A DNA stretch of 64,000 nucleotides from Candidatus Woesearchaeota archaeon (lineage in GTDB: Archaea; Nanobdellota; Nanobdellia; SCGC-AAA011-G17; JACPNG01): NCBI GenBank assembly GCA_016185615.1, contig JACPNE010000002.1, forward strand, positions 5,253-69,252. Direction: 5' to 3'. The notes below the pieces were generated by a model, which was not told the origin of the DNA, did not search any database, and saw only the letters and a list, made by a program, of their open reading frames with translations. Below are positions 6,725 through 29,910 of the stretch, one piece after another (the first letter of the stretch is position 1; each line of letters starts with the position of its first letter). The translations under genes and the position numbers were made by a program.

Positions 6725-8207
6725 TTATCAACACCGAAATTAATATGATCAATAGTGCTATAAATAAAAACACACCCAATCTTGAAGCCTCTTTTGAGCT
6801 GTTTTCATATACTATTCTATTGTTTATATTCGCTACTTTTTTGGTTGTTTCTTGAGTTATATTATTCTCTTTAGTATCTTCTTTTTTAATACTTTCCTTT
6901 TTGGAAATATCATCTTTTATAATGCCTTTAGTATAACATTCTTTGCTAATTCCTGATATTTCTATATCTTCCTTATCTTCAGTATTTAAACCCTCTACAA
7001 TTATATTATAAGTTCCGTCTTTATACTTTTCATCACAATTAAGTCCTAATTGTATTGGGAATGTTATCTCATTATTGCTGAACTTTTCATAGACATTTGC
7101 CTTTGAGATCTTTGTTATTCTTTCATCACCCGAAATATAAGATTCTATTACTTCTTTTTCTGTATCTCCCTTATAAACAGAAATCTTTACTCTTATACTT
7201 GATCCCCACTCTGCTTTTTTATTGCTTCCTAGATCATATATCCTGTCTATTTCTATTTTTGAATCAGTAACTTGTTCTATAGTTGAATTATCTTTGTTTT
7301 CTTCATTTGGAGTTGACTCTGTCATTTGCCACATACTGTTTATTTTACTCCAACTTAATCCCTCTTTGCTGTCGCTATAGCTGATCTCATCTATTAAATT
7401 ATCATTAAGATCATATAACATTATCTTTTCAAAACCATTATTATTCAGAAATCCAGAAATCCCATTTGCATAAACAACCAAATAATTCTTTGATTTTATT
7501 CTTGTACTTTCTTCAATATGGACATTATCGATTAATAACTCTTTTTCACTGTCATCTTTTAATTTAAAGCCAAGTAAATCTAAATCTTCATTTCCAGTAT
7601 TATAAAGCTCAACCCACTCGCCATCAGGCATACTTGAATCATCATCTCCAAGAGGATTTGCCATAAACTCATTAATTTTGATTTTTGAATAATCATTAGA
7701 ATTCGTTTGATTATTCTCATTTGATCTTCCTGGGGTTGGTTCTGATTCAACAAATTCTCCATTAATTAATGCAAATGAATTTCCTTCTAAAGTTACATTA
7801 TTGTCATAATATAATACATCAATTAAATTCATATTGTTATCATACAATGTAATGCTTTCATTATTGCTTAAACCATCACCAATGGAATCATCTCCGGTAT
7901 ACAACCATAAAACATTATCATCTATCTCAAAATCATTATACACCCTTGTATCATCATCCACAATTATGGCATAGCCATGGCCTTGAAGTATAATATTATT
8001 ATAACCTTCCAAACTATCATTCTTATTATTGTCCTTTATAGTCCATCCAGTCATATTTATGGAAGTCTCATTATTATTGTACAGTTCAATCCATTCACAA
8101 TGTTTATCGAAAGAACACATTGGATTATACATCACTTCATTTATCACAACATCCGCTAAGGCCAATTGAGTGAACATTAGTAAAATTATAAACATTAGCT
8201 TTAGCAT
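6702..8207 (-). CDS. Surface protein with two lamin-tail domains (LTD), signal peptide and C-terminal TM anchor
   Basis: First LTD signature is 'VVINEVMYNP...EWIELYNNN..TGWTIKD'. Second is 'IKINEFMANP...GEWVELYNTG..LLGFKLKDD'. C-terminal hydrophobic 'LGVFLFIALLIILISVLI'. Confidence 0.7.
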   Translation of the reverse strand: MLKLMFIILLMFTQLALADVVINEVMYNPMCSFDKHCEWIELYNNNETSINMTGWTIKDNNKNDSLEGYNNIILQGHGYAIIVDDDTRVYNDFEIDDNVLWLYTGDDSIGDGLSNNESITLYDNNMNLIDVLYYDNNVTLEGNSFALINGEFVESEPTPGRSNENNQTNSNDYSKIKINEFMANPLGDDDSSMPDGEWVELYNTGNEDLDLLGFKLKDDSEKELLIDNVHIEESTRIKSKNYLVVYANGISGFLNNNGFEKIMLYDLNDNLIDEISYSDSKEGLSWSKINSMWQMTESTPNEENKDNSTIEQVTDSKIEIDRIYDLGSNKKAEWGSSIRVKISVYKGDTEKEVIESYISGDERITKISKANVYEKFSNNEITFPIQLGLNCDEKYKDGTYNIIVEGLNTEDKEDIEISGISKECYTKGIIKDDISKKESIKKEDTKENNITQETTKKVANINNRIVYENSSKEASRLGVFLFIALLIILISVLINERKDIS

Positions 8208-8269
8208 ATCAAATAATAAAAAGACAAATATTTAAATAATTTTATAAGTTTTGTAACTATACTTCAAAT

Positions 8270-9373
8270 ATGAAAGAAAAAATTCAAGATATTCTAAATA
8301 TAGCTGGAATCAAAATTAATGGAAATAATCCTTATGATATCAAAGTTTACAATGAAAAATTATATCAAAGAGTTTTATCCGGAGGCTCTTTGGCTTTAGG
8401 AGAGTCTTATATGGATGGCTGGTGGGATTGTGACAGATTAGACCAATTCTTCTATAGGATACTAAAATCAAAGCTAAATCATAGAGTTATAAATTGGAAG
8501 CAATTAATTATCCAATTTTTGAAAAGTAAACTAACAAATGAATCTAAAAGAAAAAAATATGAAATTGGGAAAAAGCATTATGATATTGGAAATGAATTAT
8601 ACAAAATCATGCTTGATAAAAGATTAGTTTATAGCTGTGCATACTGGAAAAATGCAAAAAATCTTGATCAAGCACAAGCGGCAAAACTGGATTTAATCTG
8701 TAGAAAAATAGGCTTAAAAAAAGGACAGAAAATTCTGGATATTGGTTGTGGGTGGGGAAGTTTCGCAAGATATGCAGCAGAAAAATATAAAGTAAGAGTT
8801 GTTGGAATCACAGTTTCTAAAGAACAAGTAAAGTTAGCAAAAGAATTTTGCAAAAATTTTCCAATTGAGATAAGATTGCAAGATTACAGATCATTAAACG
8901 AAAAATTCGATCATATAGTCTCAGTAGGAATGTTTGAGCATGTGGGTTATAAAAATTATAATGAATATATGAATATTGTAAGAAAATGCCTAAAGCCAAA
9001 TGGATTATTTTTATTACAGACAATAGGAAAAAATACTTCAACGGCTTTGACTGATCCATGGATATCAAAATATATTTTTCCAAATTCTATGTTGCCATCA
9101 GCGAAGAAAATCACTTCAGCATGCGAAAACCTACTTATGATCGAAGATTGGCATAGTTTTGGCAATGATTATGATAAGACTTTGATGGCTTGGCATAAAA
9201 ATTTTGTCAAGAATTGGCAACTCATAAAGCATGATTATGACAATAAGTTTTATAGGATGTGGAATTATTATCTACTTAGTTCAGCTGGAGCTTTTAGGGC
9301 AAATAATATAAGACTATGGCAAATTGTTTTTTCTAGAGATGGTTTAGAAGATGGATACATAAGTATACGTTAA
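8270..9373 (+). CDS. cfa: Cyclopropane-fatty-acyl-phospholipid synthase (bacterial type, SAM-dependent)
   Basis: Collinear with E. coli Cfa as I recall it: 'GESYMDGWWDCDRLDQFF', 'GKKHYDIGNEL', 'YSCAYW', 'ILDIGCGWG', 'VGITVSKEQ', 'LQDYRSLNEKFDHIVSVGMFEHVGYKNY', 'DPWISKYIFPNSMLPS', 'EDWHSFGNDYDKTLMAWH', 'LWQIVFSR'. Confidence 0.9.
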   Translation: MKEKIQDILNIAGIKINGNNPYDIKVYNEKLYQRVLSGGSLALGESYMDGWWDCDRLDQFFYRILKSKLNHRVINWKQLIIQFLKSKLTNESKRKKYEIGKKHYDIGNELYKIMLDKRLVYSCAYWKNAKNLDQAQAAKLDLICRKIGLKKGQKILDIGCGWGSFARYAAEKYKVRVVGITVSKEQVKLAKEFCKNFPIEIRLQDYRSLNEKFDHIVSVGMFEHVGYKNYNEYMNIVRKCLKPNGLFLLQTIGKNTSTALTDPWISKYIFPNSMLPSAKKITSACENLLMIEDWHSFGNDYDKTLMAWHKNFVKNWQLIKHDYDNKFYRMWNYYLLSSAGAFRANNIRLWQIVFSRDGLEDGYISIR

Positions 9374-22891: not shown

Positions 22892-22936
22892 AATAAAAGC
22901 ATATATGCATATTGAATAAAAGCATATATGCATATT
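22892..22936. repeat. Tandem 22-bp direct repeat, each unit containing the perfect palindrome GCATATATGC
   Basis: AATAAAAGCATATATGCATATT occurs at 22892-22913 and 22915-22936, 1 nt apart. Lies in the divergent intergenic region between the RDD gene and the wHTH membrane-protein gene. Confidence 0.85.
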
Positions 22937-23052
22937 AGTAATATTATATGTATAAAAACGAAATTCTTTTAAATAAAACAGCTATAATATTCTAATGTTT
23001 TTTAGGAGGAACTGTTTTCACACACTATATTATATTAGCATTAATTATATTT

Positions 23053-23946
23053 TTGCCTATAACAATGGGCAATGTAGAAGGAGCTACGTTAGATATAGAA
23101 TTTATCTTGAATAGTAATAAAGCACATCAAACATTATCTTATAATTTTTCAAAGCCAATAATCGATAATTCATTAGAATATACAATTGCTAGTGATATTG
23201 ATAGTGTCAACGTATTAGCTAATGGAAAAGAAGCTGATTTTGAAATAAGCCAAAATGAGGAAGTAAATACAATAAAAATAAATTCTTCAGAACCAATTAA
23301 CGATTTACAAATGTCTTTTAATGTAAATGATGTTATATTTAAGAATGGTAATACAAATCATTTTTTTACTGAATTATCTTTAAATAAAACAATTGTTTCT
23401 GACATTTCAGTAAAGGCAGTAATTCCCGCTGGCTATGGTTTATATGATAATTCATTTAAGCCGGAATCTGGAGCAATAACTAGTGATGGACAAAATGTTG
23501 TTGTTGAATGGGACGACGTAGATACAAGTAAACCATTACTTTTTTCTGTTAAATACAGAAAAGTAACTTTTCCAAGTTGGATTTTATGGACTTTAATAGT
23601 TTCATCTTTGACTATCTTAATAATATTGTTATATTTTCAATATCAACAAAAAACAGAGAAAGCAATGTTATACGGTTTTAGGGAAGATGAAAAGAAAGCC
23701 CTTGTATTCATTAAAACACATAAAAATATCTTACAAAAAGAGCTTCAAAATGAGTTTAAATTTTCACGTGCTAAATCTACAAGAATTGTAAAAAGATTAG
23801 AAGAAAAAGGATTGATAAAAAAAGAAGAATTTGGTAGAACAAATAAAATTATGTGGAGGGGGGAATTTTCTGAAAAAAAAGAGGATATAAAAGATCTTAA
23901 TGAAAAATTAAATCAAACATTCAATTTCTGGGAAAAATTAAAATAA
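23053..23946 (+). CDS. Membrane-tethered transcription regulator candidate: extracytoplasmic N-domain, one TM, cytoplasmic winged helix-turn-helix (COG2512-like architecture)
   Basis: TM 'WILWTLIVSSLTILIILLYF' followed by 'EDEKKALVFIKTHKNILQKELQNEFKFSRAKSTRIVKRLEEKGLIKKEEFGRTNKI' (MarR/wHTH-like). The start codon is uncertain (TTG 23053 or ATG 23065). Confidence 0.6.
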   Translation: MPITMGNVEGATLDIEFILNSNKAHQTLSYNFSKPIIDNSLEYTIASDIDSVNVLANGKEADFEISQNEEVNTIKINSSEPINDLQMSFNVNDVIFKNGNTNHFFTELSLNKTIVSDISVKAVIPAGYGLYDNSFKPESGAITSDGQNVVVEWDDVDTSKPLLFSVKYRKVTFPSWILWTLIVSSLTILIILLYFQYQQKTEKAMLYGFREDEKKALVFIKTHKNILQKELQNEFKFSRAKSTRIVKRLEEKGLIKKEEFGRTNKIMWRGEFSEKKEDIKDLNEKLNQTFNFWEKLK

Positions 23947-23982
23947 ATCAGCATTTAATCTGTTTTACTATTTGTTTTTGTT

Positions 23983-24046
23983 ATTGTTTCAAATTGTTTC
24001 AAAGCTGTTTCACATTGTTTCAAGAACAAATTAAGTATCTGAAACA
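23983..24046 (+). promoter_or_regulatory. Phased TGTTTCA x4 array, TATA-like AACAAATTAAGTA, then inverted TGAAACA; candidate operator/promoter of the 24137 gene
   Basis: TGTTTCA at 23985, 23995, 24006 and 24016 (10/11/10-bp spacing). TGAAACA at 24040-24046. The 3' 42 bp are repeated exactly at 26800-26841. Confidence 0.5.
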
Positions 24047-24136
24047 CTTTCTATTTTTGTCATAATGTTAGTGCGCACAATGTATCCTAGGCACATTGGT
24101 TGCACTAGATAGATAAGTATATTTGGGGGTGAAAGA

Positions 24137-26182
24137 ATGAAAAATGAAAAATATAAGCAAATAGCTGGTGCGCTGGTTGTTGTCTTTTTATTGTTAGCAG
24201 CACCTTTTGCTTTTGCTAATGGTTCTGGTGTAGATACATCTAGCATAAATGTAGATGTAAACACAGAATCGCAGTCAGAAGCAAGTGCTGAAGCAACTGG
24301 AGATGATTCTAGTGCGGAAGCAGACGCTAGTTCTGAATCGGGGGTTGAAGTAGATGCCAGTATTTCCGATGGTGATGAATCTAGTGTTGATGTAAAAGCA
24401 GATGCTAAATCTGAAGCAAATGCACAAGCAACTTCTGAAGTAGATGAAGATGATGATTGTGACACTGGATGCGATGATGAAGATACATCAAGTGAAGCTG
24501 AAGCAGAAGCAAGTGCTGAAGCAGAAGCAGAAGTAAGTGTTGAAACATCTTCCGGAACAAGTGATAACTGTGGTAACAAATGTAAACCTAAATGCGACAG
24601 TGATTGTGATGAAAACACATCTAATATAGAAGTAGAAGCAACAGCTGAAGCTGAGTCTGAAGCACAAGCAAGTACAACCTCATCAGGAGGATCTGGTGGT
24701 GGAAGCTGTAATGATTGTGACGAATGTGACACTGGATGCGATGATGAAGATACATCAAGTGCAGAAGCAGAAGCTAGCGCAGAAGCTGAAGCAGAGGTTG
24801 AAGTAGATAATAATAATGACTGTGGTAGTGAATGTGACGAAGATTCAACAATAAAAGCAGAAGCTAGCGCAGATGCAGAAGCTGAAGCAGAAGCAACTGG
24901 AGAAGGTAGTTCAGCATTTTCTAGTGCTGTAGCAAAAGCTGAAGCAACTGTTAATGTAGTCATTTCTGCATGTAATGAGATGATAGATGCAATAGTCAAA
25001 GCCGTTGCAGAAGCCCAAGCAAATGCACAAGCAACTTCTGAAGTAGATGAAGATGATGATTGTGACACTGGATGCGATGATGAAGATACATCAAGTGAAG
25101 CTGAAGCAGAAGCAAGTGCTGAAGCAAGTGCTGGATCATCATCTAATACAAATGACCACTGCGGAAGTAGATGCAAACCTAAGCCTAAATGTGGTACTGA
25201 ATGTAATAATACAGAAGACACATTAGGCGAGGCAAATGCTGAAGCAGAAGCTGAATCAGATGCTGAAGCAGAAGCAAAAGCTGAGTCTGAAGATGAGGGT
25301 GGTGCAGAAGCATTAGCTAATGCCGACGCAGAAGCTGAAGCTGAGGTTGAAGCTGAATTAGACAAAGCTTGTAATGAAGCTAAGGCTTACGCTAAATCTG
25401 TAGCTGAAGGTAGATCTGAGGCTATAACAAAAGTGTATGAACTTATAACTTCATTTGTAGAAGCTATGACTAAAGTATTCACTTCTGCTGAAGTAGATGG
25501 AGATGAATTAGGCATTGCTGTAGCAGAGGCTATGGCTAAAGCTTATGCAGAAGTTAATGTATTTGCTGACGCAGAAGCTGAAGCTTACGCTAAGGCTTTG
25601 AGTGAGGCTAGAGCAGAAGCTGAAGCAAAATGTGGGGAAGCTTCAGAAGCTAAGGCAAAAACTAACGCTAAAGCTAGTGCAGAAGCAAGAGCAGAAGCAG
25701 AAGCAAGAGCAGAAGCAAGTGCAGAAGCTCATGCCGAAGCTGAAGCTCATGCAGAAGCATGCATTGGATCAGATGAGTTATCTGATGCCGAAGCTCATGC
25801 AAAAGCTAGTGCTGAAGCTTCAGCTAGAGCATACGCACATGCAGTAGCATCTGCATTTGCTAGTGCAAGAGCAGAAGCATACGCTAAAGCAGTAGCTAGC
25901 AGTTCTGCTGGAGATGCAAGTGCTAAAGCAACAGCTGAGGCAAATGCTAAAGCCGCTGCAGAAGCTGCCGACAAAGCAGAAGCTGAAGCAGAAGCAAGTG
26001 CAGAAGCTGCCGCTAAAGCAAAAGCGCATGTAGAAGGACTTGGAAAAGCAGAAGCAGATGCTGAAGGTATTGCTCATGCTGAATCAGATGGTGAGGATGA
26101 AGCAAGCGTTGATTCAAACACATTAGCTGAAGACAATGGTGAAGCAGAAGCAGAAACTTTAGCAGAGGCTAGCTCAGAATAA
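24137..26182 (+). CDS. Secreted hyperacidic Ala/Glu-rich protein with Cys-cluster modules and (Ala-X)n tracts; function unknown
   Basis: GGGGGTGA SD 6 nt before the ATG. Signal peptide 'ALVVVFLLLAAPFAFANG'. 681-aa uninterrupted ORF with three 'CDTGCDDEDTSS' modules and C-x3-C clusters. Hairpin plus T-tract after the stop. Confidence 0.75.
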   Translation: MKNEKYKQIAGALVVVFLLLAAPFAFANGSGVDTSSINVDVNTESQSEASAEATGDDSSAEADASSESGVEVDASISDGDESSVDVKADAKSEANAQATSEVDEDDDCDTGCDDEDTSSEAEAEASAEAEAEVSVETSSGTSDNCGNKCKPKCDSDCDENTSNIEVEATAEAESEAQASTTSSGGSGGGSCNDCDECDTGCDDEDTSSAEAEASAEAEAEVEVDNNNDCGSECDEDSTIKAEASADAEAEAEATGEGSSAFSSAVAKAEATVNVVISACNEMIDAIVKAVAEAQANAQATSEVDEDDDCDTGCDDEDTSSEAEAEASAEASAGSSSNTNDHCGSRCKPKPKCGTECNNTEDTLGEANAEAEAESDAEAEAKAESEDEGGAEALANADAEAEAEVEAELDKACNEAKAYAKSVAEGRSEAITKVYELITSFVEAMTKVFTSAEVDGDELGIAVAEAMAKAYAEVNVFADAEAEAYAKALSEARAEAEAKCGEASEAKAKTNAKASAEARAEAEARAEASAEAHAEAEAHAEACIGSDELSDAEAHAKASAEASARAYAHAVASAFASARAEAYAKAVASSSAGDASAKATAEANAKAAAEAADKAEAEAEASAEAAAKAKAHVEGLGKAEADAEGIAHAESDGEDEASVDSNTLAEDNGEAEAETLAEASSE

Positions 26183-26210
26183 GCCCTTCTGGGCTTTCTT
26201 TTTTTATTTT
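26182..26210 (+). terminator. Hairpin (AGCCC-TTCT-GGGCT) followed by T-rich tract
   Basis: 5-bp GC-rich stem at 26182-26195, then TTTCTTTTTTTATTTT. Oligo-T is the usual archaeal termination signal. Confidence 0.5.
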
Positions 26211-26265
26211 TAAAAATTGATTTAGTAATATATTCAGATGATAAAAAAGAATCTATCGAGGAAAA

Positions 26266-26571
26266 ATGGGATCAAAATTAAAGTTCATGCTAATTACAAT
26301 ATTTGGATTAACTTCAGTACTAGGAGTTATATTTACGAGCTTATTGATCCATGAAGGAATTCATATCTTACAATTAGGAGAAGCAGAAAGCATTTGTTAT
26401 GACATGCAACAGGATACATTTATGCATGTCTCTCATGATTTAAACAAAGTATACAATGGAAAAATAATTTATAATGAGAATATAGGTTACTGGGAAAAAC
26501 AGGCAGTTATAGGGGAAAATATCTTTTTAGTGTTATTAAGTATGTTGATGGGTTTTATTTTAAGAAGATAA
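26266..26571 (+). CDS. Small two-TM membrane protein with HExxH motif
   Basis: 'LLIHEGIHILQ' lies directly after the first TM helix, and a second TM is at the C-terminus. 101 aa. Confidence 0.45.
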   Translation: MGSKLKFMLITIFGLTSVLGVIFTSLLIHEGIHILQLGEAESICYDMQQDTFMHVSHDLNKVYNGKIIYNENIGYWEKQAVIGENIFLVLLSMLMGFILRR

Positions 26572-26594
26572 AATAATGTGGGGGGGGTGTAACA

Positions 26595-26783
26595 ATGAAT
26601 AATCTAAGTAATTATTTAATCGAGATGAAGGGTGTTTCGAGTAGCTTGATAGAAGAGACAGATTTTTGTAGACAATATATACTTTCAAGAATTAGTAAAA
26701 TAATAACAAGTTCAACCCATACATCTATAGAAAAATTGAATCTTATCACACAATTTGAGGGGGGGTGTAGTTTTGCTAGATAA
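26595..26783 (+). CDS. Hypothetical 62-aa protein
   Basis: ATG preceded by a G8 tract plus TGTAACA (SD-like). No family recognised. Confidence 0.35.
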   Translation: MNNLSNYLIEMKGVSSSLIEETDFCRQYILSRISKIITSSTHTSIEKLNLITQFEGGCSFAR

Positions 26784-26799
26784 TATTACTAGAATATGA

Positions 26800-26841
26800 C
26801 TGTTTCACATTGTTTCAAGAACAAATTAAGTATCTGAAACA
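26800..26841 (+). promoter_or_regulatory. Second exact copy of the 42-bp TGTTTCA/TATA/TGAAACA element
   Basis: CTGTTTCACATTGTTTCAAGAACAAATTAAGTATCTGAAACA is identical to 24005-24046. In both copies ATAATG follows exactly 16 nt downstream. Confidence 0.55.
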
Positions 26842-26890
26842 GTCCTTATTCAAATTATAATGGGCACTATATCAACTGGGGGTGACAAAA

Positions 26891-28453
26891 ATGAAAATGA
26901 ACAAATTTAGTGCAATTATTTCAATATTAATTATTGTAGCTTTACCCTTAGTTATAGCACAAGGAGTAAATGATACAATAAATGATAGCTTGGGAAACAA
27001 CACAATGAATGAATTGAATAATATGAGCAACAATACACAGACATTAAATGATACAAGCACTTTAAACAATAATAGTAATGATACTTTCAACGATACCTTA
27101 GACGAAAGTGATGAAATATTGGAAGAAGATTTGATGAATGATTCGGAATTGGAAAATGATTCTGATAATGAAAGTGTACAAACTATGGATGAGGAAGTAA
27201 CTTCAACAAATTTAGGATTCCGTCAATTAGGAGAAGCATTAAATGATTTTATGTTTAATCTTCAATCAGCTTTTACATTTAGGGAAGAATCAAAATTGGA
27301 GTTACTTCAGGATAGGGTAGAAGAATTAAGAGTACGTCAACAAGAATGGGTTGAATTAAAACAACAAGCATTAATTAAATTTGATAGTGAGGAATCTGAC
27401 GCAGAGGAGAAACAGGATGTTTTAGATAGACTTAAAGAAAAACATAATGACATAATAAAAGATTATGTTGAAGTCATCTATGATTTAAATACAATTAAGG
27501 TTGAAGCAAGGGAAGATGGAGAAATAGATATAGAACAAAGAGCAAATAATTTCGCATTAGGAATAGAAGATTCTGATCTTTCACTTGGATTAAATACTAA
27601 TAGTGAAGCTGATTTAGCAGAAGAGATAGATAATGAATCAACAAGTGAAACTAGTGTTTCTGCTCAAGAGGCTATAGAAATTGCTGAAGATGAGTTTGAT
27701 TTTGATGCAACTAGCGTTACTGAAAGGGAGATGAATGGTCGATTAGTTTATCTCGTTGAAGGAACCAGAAGTGATACCTTTGGAACAACAGAATTAGATG
27801 GAATATATCAAGTATTAATTGATGCAAATACTGGAATTATCTCGTCTGTCAATATTAATATAGATATAGCATCAGGAGAGACTATAGAAAATGATTCATT
27901 AGGCATTGATAATCAAACAGCCAGTAATCAAACAACTAATCAAACAACTGGTAATCAGTCTATTGGTAATCAATCCAGAACAATGAATGAATCAAGAACA
28001 AATAGAACTGATAACAGAACTGAAGCTGGGGGGGAGGTAGAAGAAGACATTGAAATTAGAATTAATGGAAATATCAACTTTTCAGAAGAAGATGAAGAAA
28101 TGCTTAGGGATTTAGTTGAAGATTTTATAGAGTCAACTAATGAGGCAAAAATTGCAATAGAGGTTGATAAAGATGGGGGAGCAATTTCAATTGCAAGCAG
28201 TATAGCTGGAGATTTAACCTCTGAACAAGAGGGGAGATGGGATGAGATACAAGAAGAGATAAGATCATTAGTGAGTGAATTTTCAAGTGTCCAACTTAGG
28301 ATAGAAGCAGAGAGAGAATTTAGTGGAGAGTCTAACCAAACTAGTTCAAGCAGAGCAAGTGCTAGTGCCAGAAGTGAAAGTGAGAATGAAACTGCTAATG
28401 CTAGAGCAAGGAGTGAAGCTAGAAGTGAAAGCAGTTCAAGTAGTGACTATTAA
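26891..28453 (+). CDS. Secreted PepSY-domain protein with two N-glycosylation-sequon-rich linkers and a Ser/Ala/Arg/Glu low-complexity tail
   Basis: SD GGGGGTGA precedes the ATG at 26891, so the track GTG at 26882 is less likely. Signal peptide 'FSAIISILIIVALPLVIAQG'. PepSY-like 'SAQEAIEIAEDEF...MNGRLVYLVEG...YQVLIDANTGIISSV'. Confidence 0.65.
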   Translation: MKMNKFSAIISILIIVALPLVIAQGVNDTINDSLGNNTMNELNNMSNNTQTLNDTSTLNNNSNDTFNDTLDESDEILEEDLMNDSELENDSDNESVQTMDEEVTSTNLGFRQLGEALNDFMFNLQSAFTFREESKLELLQDRVEELRVRQQEWVELKQQALIKFDSEESDAEEKQDVLDRLKEKHNDIIKDYVEVIYDLNTIKVEAREDGEIDIEQRANNFALGIEDSDLSLGLNTNSEADLAEEIDNESTSETSVSAQEAIEIAEDEFDFDATSVTEREMNGRLVYLVEGTRSDTFGTTELDGIYQVLIDANTGIISSVNINIDIASGETIENDSLGIDNQTASNQTTNQTTGNQSIGNQSRTMNESRTNRTDNRTEAGGEVEEDIEIRINGNINFSEEDEEMLRDLVEDFIESTNEAKIAIEVDKDGGAISIASSIAGDLTSEQEGRWDEIQEEIRSLVSEFSSVQLRIEAEREFSGESNQTSSSRASASARSESENETANARARSEARSESSSSSDY

Positions 28454-28507
28454 ACTTTAACTCAATTAATTTATCTTTTCTTTTTTTATTTATCTTTGGA
28501 GGATAAA

Positions 28508-29236
28508 ATGAAGAAGAGGTTTTTAAAATGGAAACAAGAAATGAAACTATCTATTAAAAAAGAATTAAATAATGAGAAGTATATTCATAATATCGCACTT
28601 GGAGCAAGTGTTGGAACATTTATCTCTACAATTCCCACACCAGGAATTAATATTCTACTTGCATTATTAATATCATCCATACTTAAAATATTCGGAAAAT
28701 CAATGAGTTTATGGGCTGTTTTTGCATCTTTTGCTTTTTGGAATCCAATAGTGCAATTTCCCATTTATATAGGAAGTATGACTATTGGTTATCTTTTATT
28801 TCAGAGACCATTTCCACAGGATTTACTATCATTTGAGATGATAAAAAACTTTTCTATTCAATATTTTATTGGAGCATTTATATTAGCTTTAATTATATCT
28901 CCACTTTCTTATTTTTTAGTAATAAGAATTTTAAAATTGTATAATAAAAGATCAGATACAACTAACTATGATAAAAGTTTTAATACATTTACTATTTCAA
29001 AAATTAAATTATTACTTTTTATTATTGTTATAACCTCTTTACCATTAGTTTCCGCTTTGAATATAGGCTCACAGTCATCCCACAAGACTTATTCAGATGA
29101 TTCAGATATATTAACAACTAATAATAACATTAATACAAAGTTATCTGATGTTAAGAATTTACTTAGTTACTTAAATTATTTTAATACTACAAAAGAAAAA
29201 ATATCATCAATATTAAATCAGGATAATAATGAGTAG
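28508..29236 (+). CDS. Polytopic membrane protein, DUF2062-like
   Basis: 'NIALGASVGTFISTIPTPGINILLALLIS' resembles the DUF2062 core. GGAGG lies 5 nt before the ATG at 28508, so the track TTG at 28496 is less likely. Confidence 0.5.
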   Translation: MKKRFLKWKQEMKLSIKKELNNEKYIHNIALGASVGTFISTIPTPGINILLALLISSILKIFGKSMSLWAVFASFAFWNPIVQFPIYIGSMTIGYLLFQRPFPQDLLSFEMIKNFSIQYFIGAFILALIISPLSYFLVIRILKLYNKRSDTTNYDKSFNTFTISKIKLLLFIIVITSLPLVSALNIGSQSSHKTYSDDSDILTTNNNINTKLSDVKNLLSYLNYFNTTKEKISSILNQDNNE

Positions 29237-29293
29237 AATATTTACATCATATATAAAGTAAGAATATAGTAAAATCTATTTTGGGGTGAGTTT

Positions 29294-29422
29294 ATGGCAT
29301 CAAGCGTTACATTGGGAATAATAAGCATAATCTTTGGAATAGCAGTAATAGCATTTCCAAAATTTTTGAGATTTATCATTGGATTGTATTTTATACTCAG
29401 TGGAATACTCATTTTAGTATAA
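29294..29422 (+). CDS. 42-aa two-helix membrane peptide (absent from ORF track)
   Basis: 'MASSVTLGIISIIFGIAVIAFPKFLRFIIGLYFILSGILILV' preceded by TTGGGGTGAGTTT. Confidence 0.4.
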   Translation: MASSVTLGIISIIFGIAVIAFPKFLRFIIGLYFILSGILILV

Positions 29423-29469
29423 TCTATGATTAAAAACCTTTATATATTTAATAATATAATTAAAATTCA

Positions 29470-29910
29470 ATGGATAACGACAATAAGATGCTTATATTGG
29501 CTGTTGTAGTTGTTGTAGCATTGGGATTCTTAGGGTTTGTATTTGGTGATTTGACTGGATATGCTACTAGAGATAGCAATGAAAAAATATTAACAAGATT
29601 TTATATATCATCTAATCCAGATATTATTGAAGAGTTTAATCCTACAATTGGAGCAAGTGATTTTGTTTATTTTACAGTTGAAGTTGGAAGTGCAGGAGTA
29701 AATGATCAGATTTCTTTTTATGAAGTAGACGGATTGAATGAAAGAAGAAGATCCCAAACATATATTGGATGTACTGGATATATATGCAGGCCAAACAGAG
29801 TTGAAGTAAAGAAATATAAAATTCCATCTTCATGGGAAGGAGAATACTGTGCTAAGGTTTATGACAGGGAATTTGCTGAAGATGTTAAAACTTGTTTCTT
29901 TGTAGAATAA
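29470..29910 (+). CDS. TM-anchored small extracytoplasmic 4-Cys domain protein (paralog of 52185-52655)
   Basis: N-terminus 'MDNDNKMLILAVVVVVALGFLGFVF' and C-terminus 'GC.GYICR...CAKVYDREFAEDVKTCFFVE' align with the 52185 ORF. Confidence 0.5.
   Translation: MDNDNKMLILAVVVVVALGFLGFVFGDLTGYATRDSNEKILTRFYISSNPDIIEEFNPTIGASDFVYFTVEVGSAGVNDQISFYEVDGLNERRRSQTYIGCTGYICRPNRVEVKKYKIPSSWEGEYCAKVYDREFAEDVKTCFFVE

Follow-up and report, generated by a model that had tools for sequence, protein, structure and literature searches.

A transmembrane transcription regulator and a putative TATA-bracketing operator beside secreted-protein genes of DPANN archaea

Transmembrane transcription regulators (TTRs) are an established class in bacteria and archaea, and a census found them to be common in archaea, at approximately four per genome (PMC10269533). 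A TTR carries a DNA-binding domain and at least one transmembrane (TM) region in one polypeptide. Examples are ToxR, TcpP and CadC, as well as ArnR and ArnR1 of Sulfolobus, which also control surface structures. Both features are present in the product of a gene in a 64,000-nt stretch of DNA from a Candidatus Woesearchaeota archaeon (contig JACPNE010000002.1, positions 5,253 to 69,252; hereafter the window, G+C ~29%). Its stop codon is followed by an array of short direct repeats that runs into a 42-bp promoter/operator element, of which an identical copy precedes a second gene (Table 1). The genes behind the two copies encode large secreted proteins, termed here AE681 and the PepSY protein. 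Most DPANN archaea remain uncultured; their genomes are tiny, and they rely on contacts between their cell surface and a host. In the literature searched, no transcription regulator-operator pair was found described for DPANN archaea, and nothing relevant was found on DUF7343, DUF5667, COG2512, the element or DPANN TTRs.

As in the TTRs named above, an extracytoplasmic domain, a TM segment and a DNA-binding domain lie in one chain, which would likewise act on a nearby promoter in answer to an external cue. As with ToxR-type regulators, the candidate sites are direct repeats in phase, one turn of the helix apart. However, the regulator differs from described TTRs in several respects. (i) In comparison with ToxR, CadC and ArnR its topology is inverted, with the signal peptide and ectodomain first and the DNA-binding domain at the C-terminus; the ToxR/CadC domain order is absent. 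(ii) The DNA-binding domain is of the MarR/Lrs14/DUF7343 type and not of the OmpR/PhoB type, and no Trans_reg_C/OmpR family was among the 14 Pfam hits. (iii) The ectodomain is a β-sandwich resembling those of M1-peptidase N-domains and ribophorin. (iv) The TATA box lies between the parts of the putative operator, whose direct repeats are upstream of it and whose inverted copy is downstream. With the MarR/SlyA and Lrs14 families the regulator has a winged helix-turn-helix (wHTH) core in common, whereas MarR proteins are soluble homodimers of ~140-150 aa with flanking dimerisation helices. The regulator is tethered to the membrane, has neither the N- and C-terminal dimerisation helices nor the ligand pocket, and its candidate site is not a compact palindrome. 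By definition it is a TTR; it is not a canonical MarR protein, nor is it ToxR-like in topology or in type of DNA-binding domain. The class is known, whereas the topology of the family, the TATA-bracketing operator, the restriction to DPANN archaea (as sampled) and the secreted-protein regulon are new.

The regulator, 297 aa long, spans the membrane once and has a β-sandwich N-domain; it is identical to an NCBI entry annotated as a MarR family transcriptional regulator of Candidatus Woesearchaeota archaeon. The wHTH at aa 212-267 matches PF24034 DUF7343 (34.8 bits; cut-off 27.6) and PF01047 MarR (29.2 bits; cut-off 24.6), the latter above the gathering score and spanning only profile positions 8-50 of 59, the wHTH core. 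Its nearest solved-structure sequences are SlyA (1lj9, E = 0.0016) and the Lrs14-like protein 6cmv. Hydropathy places the TM segment at residues 171-198. An AlphaFold2 model built from a 31-sequence family alignment (mean predicted local distance difference test, pLDDT, 92.4) has 14 β-strands between residues 7 and 166, a helix at 171-202, the wHTH at 207-264 and a C-terminal helix. A TM segment followed by Lys/Arg is kept in all 31 sequences, and a cleavable-looking signal peptide is found in all 30 homologs. Together, these features predict a type-I membrane protein with a signal peptide, a β-sandwich ectodomain of ~165 aa, a TM helix and a cytoplasmic MarR/Lrs14-like wHTH. In Foldseek searches, the ectodomain resembled the N-terminal β-sandwich of leukotriene-A4 hydrolase/M1 aminopeptidases and yeast OST1/ribophorin I (E ~1e-5; query-normalised TM-score 0.37-0.43). 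In M1 peptidases and OST1 this fold touches peptides or proteins, an analogy that may be relevant to sensing and implies no catalysis.

An exhaustive profile search at E≤1e-30 yielded 164 representatives of the family (50%-identity clusters), nearly all of 270-330 aa and matching along the entire profile; full-length homologs share about 30-46% identity with the window protein. Across the 31-sequence alignment the ectodomain is variable, with a few conserved motifs (HFFTE, LPxGY, SDG and FSVKF), and the reading head, FSRAKxTRI...GRTNK, is almost invariant. The invariant recognition-helix and wing residues are S234, R235, T239, R240 and G257-N260. Substitutions were counted against a sister strain from another metagenome (L129; loci are designated by L numbers), which is 96% identical in nucleotide sequence and collinear in gene order and flanks. 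The regulator gene differs from that of the sister strain by 23 synonymous and 18 nonsynonymous changes.

The repeat array comprises two degenerate units (TGTTTTA at 23961 and TGTTTTT at 23973) and four perfect TGTTTCA units (23985, 23995, 24006 and 24016), with start-to-start spacings of 12, 12, 10, 11 and 10 nt. The last two units are the direct repeats DR1 (24006-24012) and DR2 (24016-24022) of the first element copy. They are followed by a 17-nt spacer (N17), which contains AGAACAAATTAAGTATC, resembling a transcription factor B (TFB) recognition element (BRE) and TATA box, and by an inverted TGAAACA (24040-24046). The inverted half-site begins 24 bp after the start of DR2. The second copy has the same two direct repeats, spacer and inverted repeat. 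An earlier note on this DNA had reported that both large secreted genes carry the same 42-bp element and that its motif is arrayed directly after the regulator gene; both observations hold, the 42 bp (CTGTTTCACATTGTTTCAAGAACAAATTAAGTATCTGAAACA) being identical at the two sites. Similarity between the copies runs to 63 nt at 86%, and resumes around the Shine-Dalgarno sequence and first codons. A 31-nt sub-pattern occurs in the window only at these two sites at ≤3 mismatches and never in 100 shuffles, and TGTTTCA-N3-TGTTTCA occurs three times, always within the block, against 0.06 expected. A scan for bacterial sigma-70 promoters gave nothing above shuffles, a model that is not meaningful for an archaeon. 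Both copies are present and unchanged in the sister strain, though the flanks differ. The phased repeats at 23961-24022 are putative binding sites of the regulator upstream of the BRE/TATA. A 12-nt indel separates the strains within the array (window 23961-23984 against 5882-5930 of L129), with one degenerate unit fewer in the sister strain, and so the array grows or shrinks by whole repeat units.

Conservation of the element was assessed in regulator loci taken from metagenomes by protein similarity alone, in order to avoid circularity. The first five orthologs fetched by protein identity, one of them from a GC-rich genome, all carried TGTTTCA-N3/4-TGTTTCA-N17-T(G/A)AAAC 1-2 nt past the stop codon. 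The metagenomic sample comprised 59 orthologous loci, 54 of them with at least 120 nt of downstream DNA. The element (≤3 mismatches in 20 specified positions) was present in 51 of the 54 against ~0.4 expected, the background being 1.2 hits per Mb in block-shuffled controls. It abuts the regulator stop in 15 loci; in 25 it is on the strand of the regulator gene, 11-700 nt downstream, and in the remaining 11 it sits elsewhere in the locus, often between divergently transcribed genes. Conversely, a search with the DNA pattern in one genome per species matched ~33 archaeal loci, ~27 of which adjoin a regulator homolog. The archaeal labels were Aenigmatarchaeota, Woesearchaeota, Iainarchaeum, Nanoarchaeia and 'archaeon', and a few others such as 'Methanosarcinales' are probably mis-binned contigs. 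None of the bacterial matches to the pattern has a regulator homolog beside it; those in Nostoc, Mucilaginibacter and other bacteria were rejected as chance or unrelated repeats, and so were those in Thor- and Heimdallarchaeota, which likewise have no regulator homolog. On large contigs (275-918 kb) a single strict copy is present, in line with a regulator that is local and dedicated. Two copies each are carried by the window, the sister strain and L158, and also by one genome of Aenigmatarchaeota (L040 plus L094). A check set out beforehand, the conservation of the element and gene order in relatives, was borne out: across DPANN archaea, regulator orthologs come with the element, and the gene order recurs in the Woesearchaeota loci L064 and L133.

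The anatomy of the element was derived from 42 non-redundant copies of the protein-retrieved loci. Its general form is TGTTTCA-N3/4-TGTTTCA-N17-TGAAAC, in which the spacer holding the BRE/TATA-like box is always 17 nt. The 5' end of N17 is GC/purine-rich and BRE-like (consensus CGAAG), and an AT-rich core occupies positions 7-15 (98-100% A/T at 11-12; L010 reads AGAAAATTTTATAT). A further AT-rich stretch lies beyond the inverted repeat. Conservation peaks in the GTTTCA half-sites, which lie outside the BRE/TATA, and the TATA region is variable. In loci with short leaders the start codon is 18-25 nt past the inverted repeat, a spacing consistent with a start site ~13 nt past the inverted repeat and with a TATA box that lies within N17; a TATA box downstream of the inverted repeat was rejected as at odds with it. 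The likely layout places DR1 at ~-55 and DR2 at ~-44 to -38; BRE and TATA come next, then the inverted repeat (~-20 to -14) and, ahead of +1, an AT-rich proximal element.

Table 1. Features of the regulator block, in coordinates of the window
Feature	Position	Strand	Basis
Tandem 23-nt repeat AATAAAAGCATATATGCATATT, two exact copies	22892..22940	+	Upstream of regulator promoter
Regulator gene 5' extension	22995..23052	+	Sequence reading, homolog comparison
Transmembrane transcription regulator	23053..23946	+	Pfam, family alignment, AlphaFold2, Foldseek
Array of six phased direct repeats, directly 3' of regulator stop	23961..24022	+	Sequence
Promoter/operator element, copy 1	24005..24046	+	Exact duplication, conservation across loci
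AE681, secreted hyperacidic Ala/Glu-rich protein	24137..26182	+	Open reading frame, composition, substitution pattern
Hairpin and T-run directly 3' of AE681	26181..26206	+	Hairpin scan
ORF101, two-TM HExxH protein	26266..26571	+	Open reading frame, composition
ORF62, doubtful gene	26595..26783	+	Substitution pattern
Promoter/operator element, copy 2	26800..26841	+	Identical to copy 1
Secreted sequon-rich PepSY protein (family A)	26891..28453	+	Pfam, hhalign, composition
DUF2062 polytopic membrane protein	28496..29236	+	PF09835, 61.1 bits (cut-off 27.4), aa 31-153
42-aa DUF3096 membrane peptide	29294..29422	+	Pfam, 25.3 bits
p146, TM-anchored 4-Cys protein	29470..29910	+	N-terminal anchor, 4 Cys

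The reading that we consider probable is that of a transmembrane regulator of the one-component kind, which would control the promoter beside its gene, with this protein as the presumed binder of the element. The reading head and the GTTTCA core are both invariant over ~55 distinct loci, a co-conservation that fits direct recognition. The winged helix would bind the GTTTCA half-sites, of which at least two, as phased direct repeats, immediately precede the BRE/TATA of the next promoter and one, inverted, falls between TATA and start site, and the regulator would couple an extracellular cue to the transcription of secreted-protein genes. In this Woesearchaeon, two such promoter cassettes would place two secreted proteins under common control. 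The first unit would comprise the hyperacidic Ala/Glu/Cys protein, monocistronic with its own terminator, and the second the sequon-bearing DUF5667-like/PepSY protein followed by the DUF2062 protein and the DUF3096 peptide. Judged by what is general in archaeal promoters, the phased upstream repeats look like sites of an activator, and the site between TATA and +1 like that of a repressor. More tentatively, the occupied inverted site might repress and the upstream repeats might recruit TATA-binding protein/TFB.

Several points weigh against this reading. Adjacency alone cannot separate this protein from another factor as reader of the element, and 3 of the 54 loci with adequate flanks have no element. 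Moreover, L064 and L133 have no second element before their PepSY genes, which would make the co-regulation of both large proteins specific to the lineage of the window. MarR-type domains usually bind compact palindromes as dimers, whereas the regulator domain is devoid of the MarR dimerisation helices and the geometry of the site is atypical. Finally, no canonical in-frame start precedes the signal-peptide-like segment of the regulator gene in this species, which makes its topology or expression here uncertain.

The element could instead be a strong conserved core promoter, or the site of some other soluble factor, with the regulator merely syntenic and acting elsewhere or not on DNA. In keeping with this, N17 holds features resembling a BRE/TATA and a promoter proximal element, and covariation between reading head and half-site is not demonstrable, as both are almost invariant. 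However, a core promoter would not explain why conservation is highest in the half-sites, outside a BRE/TATA region that itself varies, and a genome holds few copies of the element or just one, which would not be expected of a general promoter feature. The half-sites also persist while the downstream gene switches among three unrelated families and the regulator turns divergent, so that the regulator, and not the target, is the constant partner. This alternative is considered unlikely. A similarly low probability is given to regulated proteolysis, in which the ectodomain would sense a cue or a secreted partner and cleavage would free a soluble wHTH to bind the element, by analogy with anti-sigma or regulated intramembrane proteolysis-type signalling. 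The single-pass topology with a cytoplasmic DNA-binding domain would suit such a scheme, as would the small HExxH membrane protein encoded within the block (ORF101), and the co-encoded secreted PepSY/DUF5667 proteins could serve as extracellular modulators. PepSY-like folds modulate membrane sensors in the case of YycH/YycI with WalK. Nevertheless, ORF101 is conserved only to the sister strain, no site-2-protease-type gene is linked in other loci, and action from the membrane is established for other TTRs (PMC10269533) and plausible in cells so small. A third alternative, rated very improbable, takes the block for a mobile or hypervariable island of surface antigens, acquired recently, and the 42-bp repeat for a recombination or duplication scar of no regulatory meaning: the low-complexity, repeat-rich, fast-evolving proteins (the PepSY protein among them), a local GC of up to 42% and a promoter, leader and first codons that look duplicated (families D14 and D20) would fit, whereas the GC rise (at 24-26 kb of the window) arises because of the GCx/GAA codons of the Ala/Glu-rich AE681 gene, no integrase or transposase was found in or beside the block, purifying selection acts on AE681, the locus is collinear at 96% identity with that of the sister strain, which stems from a different metagenome, and the element is conserved far beyond the lineage at a fixed position relative to regulator and start codons.

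Control of the adjacent promoter from the membrane, the reading preferred here, could be part of a wider scheme. A DPANN-wide, apparently DPANN-specific sensor of surface feedback or contact might monitor, through its ectodomain, the secreted acidic/PepSY/DUF5667 matrix of the cell or the host surface and switch the matrix genes from the membrane via a TATA-clamping operator; in this species, expression of the sensor may also need +1 recoding on a leaderless mRNA. In its entirety this scheme is doubtful. The locus nevertheless provides a concrete, testable regulatory unit, comprising a protein family (at least 164 clusters at 50% identity), a putative operator of ~40 bp with fixed geometry around the BRE/TATA, and a small candidate regulon of secreted DUF5667, PepSY-linked, Cys-rich and hyperacidic alternating Ala/Glu families. 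It is open to cultivation-free testing using a soluble wHTH fragment with synthetic DNA and existing groundwater metatranscriptomes. In addition, it adds a MarR-like example of type-I topology to the TTRs and points to secreted proteins that these archaea would regulate on outside cues.

A census of the first genes past the element covered 86 non-redundant copies, of which 59 could be classified by an open reading frame (ORF) that begins no more than 600 nt away and encodes 120 aa or more. Nearly all of the first genes have a signal-peptide-like start, and three secreted families account for 50 of the 59. Family B (23 first genes) comprises proteins of ~280 aa with 10-12 Cys and C-x2-NP-x-D-x2-C repeats and has no Pfam match, family A (15) is that of the window PepSY protein, and family C (12) consists of genuine DUF5667 proteins; the other nine include large acidic proteins. 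In many loci a genuine DUF5667 protein is encoded by the next gene or by the first target, and the widespread core partner of the regulator is a DUF5667-type secreted protein. In family B (e.g., L013:688-1506, L010:6906-7706, L034:4123-4989 on the minus strand, and ~25 further loci) an N-terminal β-rich domain precedes the C-terminal Cys repeats, and the relative in L153 has a weak YceI-like match. At the GC-rich ortholog locus L006, a gap of ~390 nt (8065-8457) lies between the element and a DUF5667-like gene. It holds only tiny acidic Cys-containing ORFs (MYDCSEDGWPN and MERKERKWDCEEDEMEMGMSGAMPCSLY), each with a Shine-Dalgarno-like sequence upstream, which could be small peptides or part of a long leader.

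The PepSY protein of the window has a signal peptide, an Asn-rich low-complexity region, a DUF5667-like helical region, PepSY, a linker and a small C-terminal α/β domain; a single-sequence structure model (pLDDT 48.8) was used for secondary-structure layout only. Aa 259-318 match PF03413 (32.4 bits; cut-off 24), as do 6 of 17 family members, and 25 N-x-S/T sequons are present against 9 expected. It shares with PepSY/DUF5667 secreted proteins the PepSY domain and an N-terminal motif aligning with the DUF5667 core, and differs by its long Asn-rich sequon tracts and extra C-terminal domain. The window protein has no Pfam DUF5667 (PF18915) match at E≤1. The family-A profile, assembled from ORFs in the fetched regulator loci (21 members), aligns with a DUF5667 profile derived from the loci over 40 columns (hhalign; 94% probability, E = 9e-8), and the common gene pair of families A and C is therefore paralogous at that end. 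The family-A profile matched no PDB sequence. Among candidates largely taken up by low-complexity matches, a homolog search with aa 95-523 listed only the protein itself and that of the sister strain, and the core (aa 106-325) returned none. The start codon is probably ATG 26891 (or GTG 26882). With 22 synonymous and 35 nonsynonymous changes from the sister strain, and indels in the sequon tract, the protein is fast-evolving.

AE681 (681 aa, pI ~4.05) contains 25% Ala, 17% Glu and 22 Cys, and has a signal peptide and Cys-rich acidic modules of the CxxxC type. Small (A/S/T/V) and acidic/polar residues alternate with a two-residue period (score 0.23; 95th percentile 0.04), a pattern reminiscent of acidic low-complexity surface or matrix proteins, for example the self-assembling EAK16-type peptides, in which Ala and charged residues alternate. 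Pfam gave no match to AE681, and Pfam and related searches gave no homology to any characterised protein. Changes from the sister strain are 25 synonymous and 15 nonsynonymous in the annotated frame and 4/39 and 6/37 in the other two; AE681 is genuinely coding in its plus-strand frame and under purifying selection. The hairpin and T-run behind the gene are likely to be a transcript end that would make AE681 monocistronic, and a comparable structure follows the acidic gene of L064.

In L064, the regulator (44% identity) is followed by the element, a 613-aa Ala/Glu-rich secreted protein, the hairpin/T-run, a small Cys/acidic protein, a PepSY protein (34% identity over 400 aa), a DUF2062 protein and a DUF5667 protein. 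In L133, the order is regulator, element, a 575-aa acidic protein, a PepSY protein and a DUF3096 peptide. Against shuffles preserving local composition and two-residue alternation, AE681 aligns with the same-slot proteins at z = 9.0 (L064) and 7.4 (L133), and these are probably fast-diverging orthologs. The same-slot proteins (L064:4195-6036 on the minus strand; L133:2991-4718) hold one to three copies of a conserved Cys/His module, ICHxPPGxxxxxHTIxVGxSxxxxHxxHGDxxGxC, also present in the small protein next in line in L064 (a 222-aa ORF); AE681 itself has the CxxxC acidic modules instead. A 732-aa Aenigmatarchaeota protein (L116:2401-4599) combines a PepSY-family module with long SGDxGxS repeats and an acidic, Cys-rich segment, and so looks like the two large window proteins in a single chain. 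Its reading as a 'Rosetta-stone' fusion linking both was rejected, its tail being like AE681 only in composition (z ~0.9), a weak hint.

The earlier note had proposed the entire 7-kb run as an envelope or attachment module. All of its ORFs are located as it had listed them, its wHTH, PepSY and DUF2062 calls correspond to Pfam matches above the cut-offs, and counts bear out the compositions that it described (hyperacidic Ala/Glu/Cys, sequon-rich, HExxH and 4-Cys). The core of regulator, element and secreted proteins is conserved, whereas ORF101 extends only to the sister strain, p146 is unmatched in the other regulator loci and ORF62 is probably no gene; what is conserved forms a smaller module, with a content other than that of the 7-kb block. 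The DUF5667-type partner had gone unrecognised in the N-terminus of the PepSY protein. The suggested sensor-regulator of a surface matrix stands in part: a wHTH regulator of secreted proteins is well supported by comparison of the loci, while the matrix part has no family support. No S-layer or adhesin Pfam family was matched by AE681, the PepSY protein or the same-slot relatives, and such a role is unsupported. The signal peptides, sequons and alternating small/acidic sequence are compatible with a self-assembling or attachment matrix.

Upstream of the regulator promoter, a tandem repeat with the palindrome GCATATATGC in each copy occurs once in the window and elsewhere only in same-species loci. 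It is outside the conserved TGTTTCA system; a different factor that controls the regulator gene may use it as operator. Downstream of it, ATG 22995 lies ~24 nt past a TATA-like TTTTAAATAAAA (22966-22977), the geometry of a leaderless mRNA, and is out of frame with the main regulator ORF by one base. The main-frame segment upstream of 23053 encodes a signal-peptide-like ..THYIILALIIFLPITMGNVEGA and contains no ATG, GTG or TTG start, while the ORF as called from 23053 has no signal peptide of the kind present in all 30 homologs. The arrangement (ATG TTT TTT AGG AGG ...) is unchanged in three other assemblies and kept in the sister strain, where 3/3 substitutions are synonymous in the main frame. 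Recoding by +1 on the T6 run or a non-canonical start is a possible explanation. Three independent short-read assemblies of the organism (L001-L003, Logan) break within ~90 nt 3' of the regulator gene. These breaks fall inside the repeat array, just before the repetitive AE681 gene; repeats fragment assemblies at the locus, and the module is therefore likely to be under-represented in metagenome-assembled genomes.

The block is flanked on one side by a minus-strand S49 peptidase/RDD pair and on the other by the gene of a polytopic membrane protein, with a radical-SAM gene behind it. Between the two large genes, ORF101 has two hydrophobic segments and HExxH at residue 29. With tblastn matches only in sister-strain loci (L129 and L143) and 8 synonymous against 3 nonsynonymous changes, it is a real gene and not a conserved module member. 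ORF62, which had been counted as a gene, is probably not protein-coding: it has no Pfam match, and its 1 synonymous and 4 nonsynonymous changes show no frame preference. A Shine-Dalgarno-like GGGGGGGTG lies within it at 26758-26766. At the far end, p146 has a homolog in no other regulator locus, the sister-strain contig ending before its position, and its link to the module is unsupported. The DUF2062 gene follows the PepSY gene in both the window and L064 (33% identity between them), and homologs of the DUF3096 peptide lie beside PepSY-family genes in L133 (52% identity, directly after it; tblastn) and L032.

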